DNA of 64,000 nucleotides from a bacterium (GCA_036504735.1 DASXUQ010000009.1:1-64000), one strand, 5' to 3'. Positions 1,525 to 2,510 are shown, counted from the first letter of the stretch. Made by a program: numbers and translations. The notes: generated by a model not told the origin, from the letters alone.

Positions 1525-2226
1525 TTAGATCGTCGCCAGTAAATAGAATCCCACTCCTACCAGCAGCACTCCACCGCCGATGCGAATGACCGGCTCCACT
1601 CTCTGTGCCGTTTTGCTGAGTCTCCCAAGCCCAAAGCTAAGCCCGATCAGACCCGCCGTCAGCGGCAAACTGTAGCCAAGGGCAAAGACCGTTAAAGCCA
1701 TTGCGCCGAGAAGCAGCGTGCTCTTCAACACGACCGCGCCAATGGCCATAGGCAGCAGCGGATTGCAACCCACCGAGCAGGCGGTGGAAGCGCCACCCAG
1801 AACAAGCCCGTAGACCATTGCGCCGGCCACACCTTTCCCGCGCATGTTTGAGCTGAGATTCAGCGCAGGAATGCGAATCCGCACCAGCTTTAAGCTGACC
1901 AGACCGAACAGGACAATGGCAAGCCCTGCGGCAAACTGCCAGTAGCGCCCCAGCGAGGAACTACCCCAGTGACCGATCAGACCTGTCAGCGCACCGATCA
2001 CAGCCAGGGACAATGTGGTTCCCAGCATGAAGAACAGGCCCGCCATCCAAAGCTCACGCCGTCCGGTTTGAGAATCCCTTGATCCGGCATATCCCACCAC
2101 CGCACCGATCATCGGCAGCGCGCAGCAGGAACTCACCGCGCCCAGCATGCCGAGTAAGAACAGCGCCGGATAGAAGGCCAGACCGACCTGATCACCGGAC
2201 AGAATCTGCTGAATCCATTGCTGCAC
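1525..2226 (-). CDS. DsbD_2/CcdA-like integral membrane protein with vicinal Cys pair in TM1 (SSCCALP) and a CxxGCNP site
   Basis: The C-terminal 233 aa of ORF 1525..2514 is polytopic. DsbD-family-like Cys in two TM segments. Likely GTG start at 2226, 2 nt after the TAA of the upstream Cys-rich gene. The N-terminal 96 aa of the long ORF overlaps that gene in another frame and is probably not coding. Confidence 0.6.
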   Translation of the reverse strand: MQQWIQQILSGDQVGLAFYPALFLLGMLGAVSSCCALPMIGAVVGYAGSRDSQTGRRELWMAGLFFMLGTTLSLAVIGALTGLIGHWGSSSLGRYWQFAAGLAIVLFGLVSLKLVRIRIPALNLSSNMRGKGVAGAMVYGLVLGGASTACSVGCNPLLPMAIGAVVLKSTLLLGAMALTVFALGYSLPLTAGLIGLSFGLGRLSKTAQRVEPVIRIGGGVLLVGVGFYLLATI

Positions 2227-2228
2227 GG

Positions 2229-2510
2229 TTACTTCCCCGCGCTGGGGCAGCAGCCGCCCGAGCCGCTGCAGTCCTGTGCCGCGCCACACGCCGGAGCAGC
2301 AGACTTTGCCCAGAAGGAATACGCGCCAACTCCCACCGCGGCGAGCATAATGGTCACAAACAGTACCATCCGCAGGCGGGATCTCCGCTTCGGTGTGCTG
2401 CCACAGCCGCAGCCTGCCGCATTTTCCTGATCTGAGCCGCCGCAGCAGTTGGCCGATGATTCGGGTGTGTTGTCTGCCATGTGTTGTCTCCGGTAAGTCC
2501 GGCTGACCAT
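2229..2510 (-). CDS. small Cys-rich single-TM protein (CC, CGCG, C..C, CC clusters on both sides of the TM helix)
   Basis: 93 aa ORF, or 83 aa from ATG 2480 which has a GGAGA SD. One central hydrophobic helix (MVLFVTIMLAAVGVGAYSFWA). Cys clusters NCCGG, GCGCG, PACGAAQDCSGSGGCC. Stop TAA abuts the GTG of the DsbD-like gene. Confidence 0.5.
   Translation of the reverse strand: MVSRTYRRQHMADNTPESSANCCGGSDQENAAGCGCGSTPKRRSRLRMVLFVTIMLAAVGVGAYSFWAKSAAPACGAAQDCSGSGGCCPSAGK

Follow-up and report, generated by a model that had tools for sequence, protein, structure and literature searches.

The genes for mercury methylation, hgcA and hgcB, have been reported near genes encoding ArsR-like regulators, acr3, arsC and arsM (PMC7438021, PMC10349881, Gionfriddo preprint), and, among neighbors that recur beside hgcAB, earlier reports name only ars genes and regulators (ArsR-like, PrlF-like). 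Neither the delivery of Hg(II) to HgcAB nor the exit of methylmercury from the cell is explained so far. Mercury uptake has been listed as a possible rate-limiting step (Gionfriddo et al. preprint), and the mechanism of methylmercury export has not been elucidated, methylators being without MerC and MerE (Lin et al. 2023, PMC10083202). For HgcB, transport of Hg2+ or CH3Hg+ on its vicinal Cys tail has been proposed, as has transfer of the product to an external protein thiol, and contact of the transmembrane (TM) domain of HgcA with another protein has been suggested (PMC7305189). A candidate bearing on these questions is a pair of genes in the window, by which is meant the whole 64,000-nucleotide stretch of bacterial DNA analyzed here (GCA_036504735.1 DASXUQ010000009.1:1-64000). 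One gene encodes a DsbD-like membrane protein, the other a small Cys-rich partner, and together they form a conserved membrane pair, translationally tight and lined with Cys, that is located between the regulator and hgcA. In the literature searched, there was no paper linking hgcA with DsbD, CcdA or cytochrome c biogenesis.

Vicinal Cys pairs are typical of carriers of mercury and arsenic, and the partner has such pairs on both faces of the membrane. The reading favored here, tentatively, is that the two proteins may form a cysteine relay that carries a thiophilic metal(loid) across the membrane by a logic like that of MerT/MerP, probably supplying Hg(II) to HgcAB. Gene order, conservation, fold, Cys positions, topology and the linkage to hgcAB and ars genes are established. 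The original prediction, made from the sequence, had described the two open reading frames (ORFs), the SSCCALP and ACSVGCNP motifs, the Cys clusters on both sides of one TM helix and the 2-nucleotide TAA-GTG gap, all of which are present on the minus strand. It was made without the operon context, in which hgcA and hgcB lie immediately downstream and arsR and acr3 upstream, and that context is considered decisive here. The operon is laid out as follows.

3684..4070, minus strand: arsR, first gene of the operon, an ArsR/SmtB metalloregulator of 128 amino acids (PF01022, 50.9 bits; NF033788, 91.4 bits)
2587..3735, minus strand: acr3, arsenite efflux permease (TIGR00832, 454.7 bits, cut-off 282.8)
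2481..2586, minus strand: the 106-nucleotide gap between acr3 and the partner gene, which on direct reading holds the partner's GGAG ribosome-binding site and an inverted repeat
2229..2480, minus strand: the partner, a Cys-rich bitopic protein of 83 amino acids (alternative start ATG 2510, 93 amino acids)
1525..2226, minus strand: the DsbD-like gene, DsbD_TM/CcdA fold (PF02683, PF13386), 233 amino acids, GTG start, 6 TM helices
352..1512, minus strand: hgcA, corrinoid protein of mercury methylation, 386 amino acids (NF040863, 441.8 bits, cut-off 275)
65..394, minus strand: hgcB, mercury-methylation ferredoxin (NF040864, 118.2 bits, cut-off 99)

The genes thus run arsR-acr3-partner-DsbD-like-hgcA-hgcB, with gaps of 2 and 12 nucleotides flanking the DsbD-like gene, and the arrangement is identical in an independent assembly (L049). 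The hgcA gene starts 12 nucleotides past the DsbD-like stop codon. HgcA and HgcB are identified by their NCBIfam equivalog scores, by the cap-helix motif N(V/I)WCA(A/G)GK, present as NVWCAAGK in the HgcA translation, and by the C-terminus of HgcB, ...SSSCC, which is the expected terminal Cys pair. Likely starts within the longer ORFs are ATG 355 for hgcB (96 amino acids, overlapping the hgcA stop codon) and ATG 3687 for acr3 (366 amino acids, overlapping the arsR stop codon by 4 nucleotides), and the same calls are made on the identical contig L049.

The DsbD-like protein scores above the Pfam cut-offs for DsbD_TM (PF02683; 38.7 bits, cut-off 27.1) and DsbD_2 (PF13386; 29.2 bits, cut-off 24.9). 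Along with the PF02683 score, it has the six TM helices of the DsbD_TM/CcdA superfamily, arranged as a 3+3 inverted repeat, and one conserved Cys in each of TM1 and TM4; the Pro-Cys signature of the superfamily (SPC in TM1, PC in TM4) is missing from its clade. The SSCCALP motif occupies residues 32-38 (C34 at 2127..2125, C35 at 2124..2122) and ACSVGCNP residues 149-156 (C150 at 1779..1777, C154 at 1767..1765); TM1 is broken at S33-C34-C35 and TM4 at C150-x3-C154-N-P. At least 139 homologues are present in the database, almost all of them 230-237 amino acids long. In an alignment of 118 homologues, 40-81% identical, C35, C154 and P156 are retained in every sequence, C34 in 113 and C150 in 112, and N155-P156 is nearly invariant. 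These counts exceed what chance would give and bear out the original prediction that a conserved CC pair stands in place of the canonical PC.

A profile search with the family covered 1.84 billion representative proteins and returned 75 clusters at E<=1e-30, 658 at E<=1e-10 and 4068 at E<=1e-3. The top-ranked clade has S/A-C-C (sometimes SxC) plus C-x3-C-N-P or CCNP, and the canonical SPC...PC motifs reappear in the ranking from approximately E 1e-25 onward, with TM4 three residues shorter. The number of Cys residues within the clade ranges from 2 to 5. Judged from these motifs, the vicinal pair is the mark of a distinct clade of the DsbD family. Named relatives of the DsbD-like protein all come from metagenome-assembled genomes (MAGs) and have generic names, and the same is true of 10 clade representatives followed by cluster look-up. 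The best-scoring curated model is NCBIfam ArsG (NF040495), with 41.2 bits over residues 22-231 against a cut-off of 200; weak matches to ArsG are found in 24 of 35 family members (best E 2.9e-13) and to TsoB in 15 of the 35.

In a fold search with the modeled structure, CcdA (PDB 5VKV) was the top match; a profile search of PDB sequences with the family alignment gave nothing at E<=1, CcdA being found by fold searches alone. Two AlphaFold2 (AF2) runs, with 35 and 109 sequences, both reached a predicted local distance difference test score (pLDDT) of 61-64, and because of this low score no claim is made about Cys-Cys distances, although the predicted secondary structure was used for the layout of the helices. 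The mean number of Lys and Arg residues per loop, calculated over 109 sequences, is 3.2, 3.8 and 2.4 in loops 1, 3 and 5 versus 0.1-0.5 on the other side. An N-out/C-out topology with loops 1, 3 and 5 inside, as in CcdA, is predicted.

The partner ORF spans 2510..2229 on the minus strand and could encode 93 amino acids, but the start at ATG 2480, giving 83, is better supported: GGAG precedes it by 8-9 nucleotides, homologues start at this point, and the NCBI gene call is likewise the 83-residue protein (P0121). In the shorter numbering, C12-C13 and C24-x-C26 precede a TM helix at residues 38-58 (nucleotides 2307..2369), and C64, C70 and C77-C78-P follow it. A basic stretch, KRRSRLR, sits between the CxC motif and the helix; by the positive-inside rule, the N-terminal Cys cluster should therefore be cytoplasmic and the tail outside. 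The partner has no match in Pfam or NCBIfam, and a profile search with it found 31 database clusters, all unnamed or annotated as hypothetical protein and none with a Pfam domain. Among 14 aligned partners from the loci, little or no variation is seen in the N-terminal CC, a Cys of CxC and the outer CC, a basic stretch comes after the CxC, and the TM helix (..LAAVGVGAYSL..) is strongly conserved. Their outer tails are 22-80 residues long, rich in Ala, Gly, Pro and Ser, and contain 4-10 Cys, with one CC or more, mostly in the form CCP. In some partners (L036, L052, L054 and archaeal L012/13), a thioredoxin-like outer domain without CXXC occurs ahead of the Cys tail. In nearly all loci, the DsbD-like gene is immediately preceded by a homologous Cys-rich ORF, and the abutting partner pointed out in the original prediction is thus half of a two-component unit conserved across loci.

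Linkage was counted in 34 loci with enough downstream DNA, after removal of duplicates and of the window's own contig. The gene hgcA is rare, and it lies directly downstream of the DsbD-like gene in 17 of these 34 other loci, usually with hgcB; in L054, hgcAB is found 3 kb upstream of the pair in the same cluster. Close relatives (79-81% identity) occur both with and without hgcA. In a compact five-gene lineage represented by 23 contigs, a Cys-rich ArsR-like gene is followed by the partner, the DsbD-like gene, hgcA and hgcB, without any ars structural gene. Most of the remaining loci lie amid ars-type genes (acr3, arsC, arsM, ArsP, a P-type ATPase). The order is arsR-acr3-partner-DsbD-like-ArsP-thioredoxins-canonical CcdA in L015, arsR-acr3-ArsP-partner-DsbD-like in L003, arsC-partner-DsbD-like-acr3-arsM in L010 and arsR-arsC-C_GCAxxG_C_C-ArsM/AhpD-partner-DsbD-like-P-type ATPase-acr3 in L052, while in L019 the pair is located approximately 1.5 kb beyond arsR-acr3. 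Hosts include Calditrichota, Ignavibacteria, Krumholzibacteriia, Eisenbacteria, Myxococcota, Victivallales, Chitinivibrionia, Verrucomicrobiae and Methanotrichaceae.

The proposed relay would work as follows. The DsbD-like protein keeps the two Cys at the CcdA positions, C35 in the broken TM1 and C154 in the broken TM4, and has gained C34 and C150; since these are added to C35 and C154, a four-thiolate site in mid-membrane may be formed. The partner presents CC...CxC toward the cytoplasm and at least one CCP motif outside, and its TM helix (AAVGVGAYS) probably packs against the six-TM protein. Outer CCP thiols would capture Hg(II), or possibly As(III), which would pass by ligand exchange to the intramembrane Cys4 site, with alternating access like that of CcdA, and be released to the cytoplasmic cluster of the partner. 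The C-terminal CC of HgcB, or else Cys in the N-terminal part of HgcA, could then receive the metal(loid) for methylation. The logic would be that of MerP to MerT(CC) to the MerT loop Cys to MerA, on an unrelated scaffold. Expression is under an ArsR-type repressor, jointly with acr3 and hgcAB. Metal binding, substrate, direction and contact between the proteins are the parts of this relay that we infer. Inward delivery of Hg(II) is favored because a passive ligand-exchange path leads to an irreversible sink, because the outer multivalent CC tails resemble capture devices, because the cytoplasmic cluster is without a role in a purely redox model, and because the HgcB CC tail, an extra protein cysteine and an HgcA TM contact have already been invoked (PMC7305189). 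The fixation of four intramembrane Cys in the clade likewise counts for a metal relay, since a carrier of reducing equivalents needs two, and so do the linkage to hgcA, the ars-type surroundings of most other loci, the vicinal Cys on both faces of the partner and the topology.

Several points weigh against this relay. Support for it is computational throughout, and the AF2 models are of too low confidence to fix the geometry of the Cys4 site. The two invariant Cys, C35 and C154, coincide with the redox pair of CcdA, and the cytoplasmic cluster is absent from some partners (L054, L053). The 50% hgcA-linkage figure is biased upward because the scans were seeded from an hgcA-linked query. In L001, L003, L010, L019 and L052, the pair occurs with ars genes and no nearby hgcAB, and import would be counter-productive there; in L053, it sits beside a radical SAM gene in neither an ars nor an hgc context. 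Approximately one third of the hgcA-linked loci have an HgcA without an N-terminal Cys motif. The FeS protein, NrfD and cytochromes around a 43%-identical relative (P0113, in L050) form a respiratory-type context that points to electron transfer. Finally, the family is rare (14 loci by a motif scan of one genome per species over 185,579 species), and it was seen in uncultured organisms only, with no match among isolate genomes; given this rarity and the lack of isolate matches, the pair cannot be a general route for mercury.

It is hardly credible that the DsbD-like protein is an ordinary CcdA for cytochrome c maturation, or that a frameshift or a faulty assembly has split one gene into the two ORFs. 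Relatives are indeed named cytochrome c biogenesis protein CcdA in databases, and the junction is short: the partner's TAA (2231..2229) is followed by cc and then by GTG (2226..2224), a closeness that had led the original prediction to raise a frameshift-split gene. However, the canonical SPC/PC motifs are replaced, and a ResA/ResB/CcsA-type gene is adjacent in none of the Pfam-annotated loci examined. The ORFs stand apart in more than 30 loci from approximately 10 phyla, with spacers of 2-16 nucleotides in most loci, in all three phases and always after a stop codon; the independent assembly L049 is identical, and a search for single-polypeptide fusions found none among approximately 270 sequences. 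Longer database entries are upstream-start miscalls (P0001, P0011, P0124) or have an insertion in loop 3 (P0051, P0056, P0066, P0070), and a 329-residue ORF from TTG 2514 that spans both genes was discarded as a start-codon artefact, as it reads the partner DNA in another frame. Very improbable, too, is an Fe or Fe-S center on the four intramembrane Cys that would mediate transmembrane electron transfer like NqrD/E and RnfA/E, for example bringing low-potential electrons to HgcB/HgcA. Nqr and Rnf do contain a Cys-ligated intramembrane Fe-S center, and P0113, in which CSAC replaces CC, has CxxC and Cx3C motifs and adjoins FeS and heme proteins. A vicinal CC is a poor ligand pair for Fe-S, though, the variation from 2 to 5 Cys in the clade fits such a center badly, and ars contexts need no such electrons.

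The two remaining alternatives are the main rivals. The DsbD-like protein might be a reductant conduit that works as CcdA does: reducing equivalents of cytoplasmic thioredoxin would cross the membrane by thiol-disulfide exchange and would hold the outer CC/CCP thiols of the partner and of poly-CCP proteins in the reduced state needed for binding As(III)/Hg(II) outside the cytoplasm. The invariance of C35 and C154, the match of the fold to CcdA, the thioredoxin-like outer domains of some partners, the embedding of P0113 in an FeS/NrfD/cytochrome cluster and the known occurrence of canonical CcdA and thioredoxins in ars operons (PMC2963123) all agree with such a conduit. It is nevertheless unlikely: two Cys would be enough, whereas four are fixed in this clade and its helix-breaking Pro is gone, the conserved cytoplasmic CC...CxC of the partner is given no role, and a gene for a CXXC thioredoxin acceptor is absent from the window operon by Pfam annotation. 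In addition, the sources suggest an anaerobic life for most hosts, and outer thiols would be less prone to oxidation there. Quite unlikely is a relay working outward, for efflux or hand-out of CH3Hg+ from HgcAB and of As(III) or methylarsenite in ars contexts, functionally like ArsP/ArsG. All other transporters of these operons (Acr3, ArsP, the P-type ATPase) are exporters, the module co-occurs with the methylating enzymes HgcAB and ArsM, the nearest curated model, matched by the 24 members noted above, is the efflux permease ArsG, ArsP itself uses a TM C(S/T)C motif (PMC4435449), and methylmercury export in methylators without MerC and MerE is unexplained (PMC10083202). Against this stand the absence of an energy-coupling element and the ArsG scores, all of them far under the cut-off; a tetrathiolate site and multivalent outer CC arrays would retain metal, and a single thiol suffices for CH3Hg+.

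The inward cysteine relay is retained as the preferred reading. A bolder version of it, which is doubtful, is that the pair could be accessory machinery devoted to mercury methylation, the first of its kind: an hgc transporter, built as a Cys relay and docked on the membrane domain of HgcA, that delivers Hg(II), or removes CH3Hg+, in the lineages that carry it. If so, a MerT/MerP-like solution would have arisen independently on a CcdA scaffold, and hgcAB would be physically tied to ArsR-controlled metalloid handling. In any case, the pair is a concrete candidate, easy to mutate, for the transport of mercury or arsenic toward or away from a methylating enzyme, and the module strengthens the unexplained link of hgcAB with arsenic operons. 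The DsbD/CcdA family itself is known; what is new here is the Cys4 site, the partner and the context. For that family, the protein would show either the conversion of an electron-carrier scaffold into a soft-metal site or an acceptor of a new class.

Several further features of the window operon may be mentioned. The ArsR of the window has an ELCVCEL motif, with a CVC that we take, from what is known of R773 ArsR, to be the As(III) site, and a C-terminal GCC. An inverted repeat, ATAAAT-N5-ATTTAT at 2522..2538 on the minus strand within the acr3-partner gap, could be an internal operator or promoter element; a consensus scan of this 106-nucleotide gap found no promoter or terminator. A perfect 12-nucleotide palindrome, AAAAATATAAAA-N7-TTTTATATTTTT, at 4165..4195, approximately 100 nucleotides upstream of arsR, may be an operator. 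The arsR operon is preceded directly, on its own strand, by a gene for an SPFH/Band-7 domain protein of 807 amino acids (4293..6716, minus). HgcA of the window has an N-terminal extension with C13 and C19-A-C21, to be compared with the CU/CC extension of HgcA described by Haft & Gwadz (bioRxiv 2022.07.06.499078), and pair-linked HgcAs of other loci have an N-terminal CC, CCC, CxC or single Cys.

Other loci have peculiarities of their own. A Cys-rich ArsR-like regulator (..CC..CC..RCCVGDLG..; PF01022, 35 bits) is encoded at L055:4667-5020 (plus strand), its 3' end overlapping the partner start, with equivalents in L002, L004, L006, L008, L009 and L018; genes of this type may account for the putative regulator that has been noted upstream of hgcAB in numerous MAGs. 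In a Myxococcota MAG (L009:8713-9495, on a contig shared with L038), the hgcA after the pair looks degraded, residues 40-123 aligning and the rest being out of frame. The acr3 upstream of the pair at L001:6572-7655 (equal to L015:8695-9658) is in two overlapping frames, through a frameshift or as a pseudogene. In Methanotrichaceae archaea (L012:8703-9284 and L013:8651-9223, plus strand), a Cys-rich DUF2703 protein (PF10865, 121.5 bits) is encoded next after the DsbD-like gene, and the partner upstream is longer, with a thioredoxin-like middle part. An N-anchored protein of 227 amino acids with approximately 17 tandem DCCPD-type repeats and no Pfam match is encoded at L054:4719-5402 (plus strand), two genes upstream of the DsbD-like gene and approximately 1.5 kb downstream of hgcAB; to judge from its repeats, it looks like a metal-binding array and not a redox enzyme, a point in favor of the metal relay. 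At L050:6523-7998 (plus strand), an NrfC-like 4Fe-4S protein has a partner-like TM helix at its C-terminus, and the P0113 gene begins 2 nucleotides later, followed by NrfD and multiheme cytochromes.

One of the closest described systems is the TM domain of CcdA/DsbD (PF02683; Thermus thermophilus CcdA, PDB 5VKV), with which the window protein has in common the above-threshold score, the six-TM 3+3 inverted repeat, the breaking of TM1 and TM4 each at a conserved Cys and the predicted N-out/C-out topology. CcdA differs in having Pro before each Cys, whereas the window protein has S-C-C in TM1 and C-x3-C-N-P with a 3-residue insertion in TM4, and in having two intramembrane Cys instead of four. 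Its partner has a CXXC thioredoxin fold, while that of the window protein is a Cys-rich single-pass protein, and its context is cytochrome c maturation rather than hgcAB and ars genes. DsbD-family proteins do occur in ars operons, as CcdA with thioredoxin plus redox-active disulfide protein 2 (Castillo & Saier 2010, PMC2963123), but these sets combine a canonical two-Cys CcdA with CXXC thioredoxin partners, unlike the Cys4 protein and non-thioredoxin partner described here; a canonical CcdA-type set is located just downstream of the module in L015. In actinobacterial mer operons, a mercury resistance transport protein annotated as CcdA (PMC12195606) also belongs to the DsbD/CcdA family and, at approximately 236 amino acids, is of similar size, the comparison being by annotation and length only. 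In a tblastn search of 72,556 plasmids, the DsbD-like protein found only seven distant CcdA genes (29-34% identity).

Among arsenic systems, ArsG (NF040495), an aromatic aminobenzylarsenical efflux permease, is likewise an ars-operon membrane protein, of approximately 225 amino acids and from the same superfamily, with a weak full-length match; compared through its model only, it differs in the score (41 bits against the cut-off of 200) and in that no Cys-rich partner has been described for it. ArsP (PF03773), a methylarsenite/roxarsone(III) efflux permease, also relies on a TM Cys pair, C(S/T)C, but is of unrelated fold and family and is a separate gene, located beside the module in L001/L015, L003 and L008.

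With the mercury transporters MerT/MerP, MerF and MerE, the likeness is one of chemistry and not of ancestry, since Pfam matches are lacking and the TM counts differ (six plus one here, against three in MerT and two in MerF or MerE). The MerT likeness suggested by the original prediction accordingly holds for the vicinal CC at the TM1 break and not for homology, there being no match of the DsbD-like protein to MerT (PF02411) at E<=0.01 nor any fold kinship, and the suggested kinship of the partner with MerF/MerE gives way, as the partner has a single TM helix and matches neither Pfam nor NCBIfam models. No merR, merP or merA was seen in loci with annotated genes. What the pair has in common with MerT/MerP is a vicinal Cys pair within TM1, a further set of Cys on the cytoplasmic face, an outer Cys site that could capture Hg(II), and a gene placed directly upstream of a mercury-transforming enzyme under a metal-responsive repressor, the enzyme being MerA in the mer system and HgcAB, with an ArsR-type regulator, in this operon.

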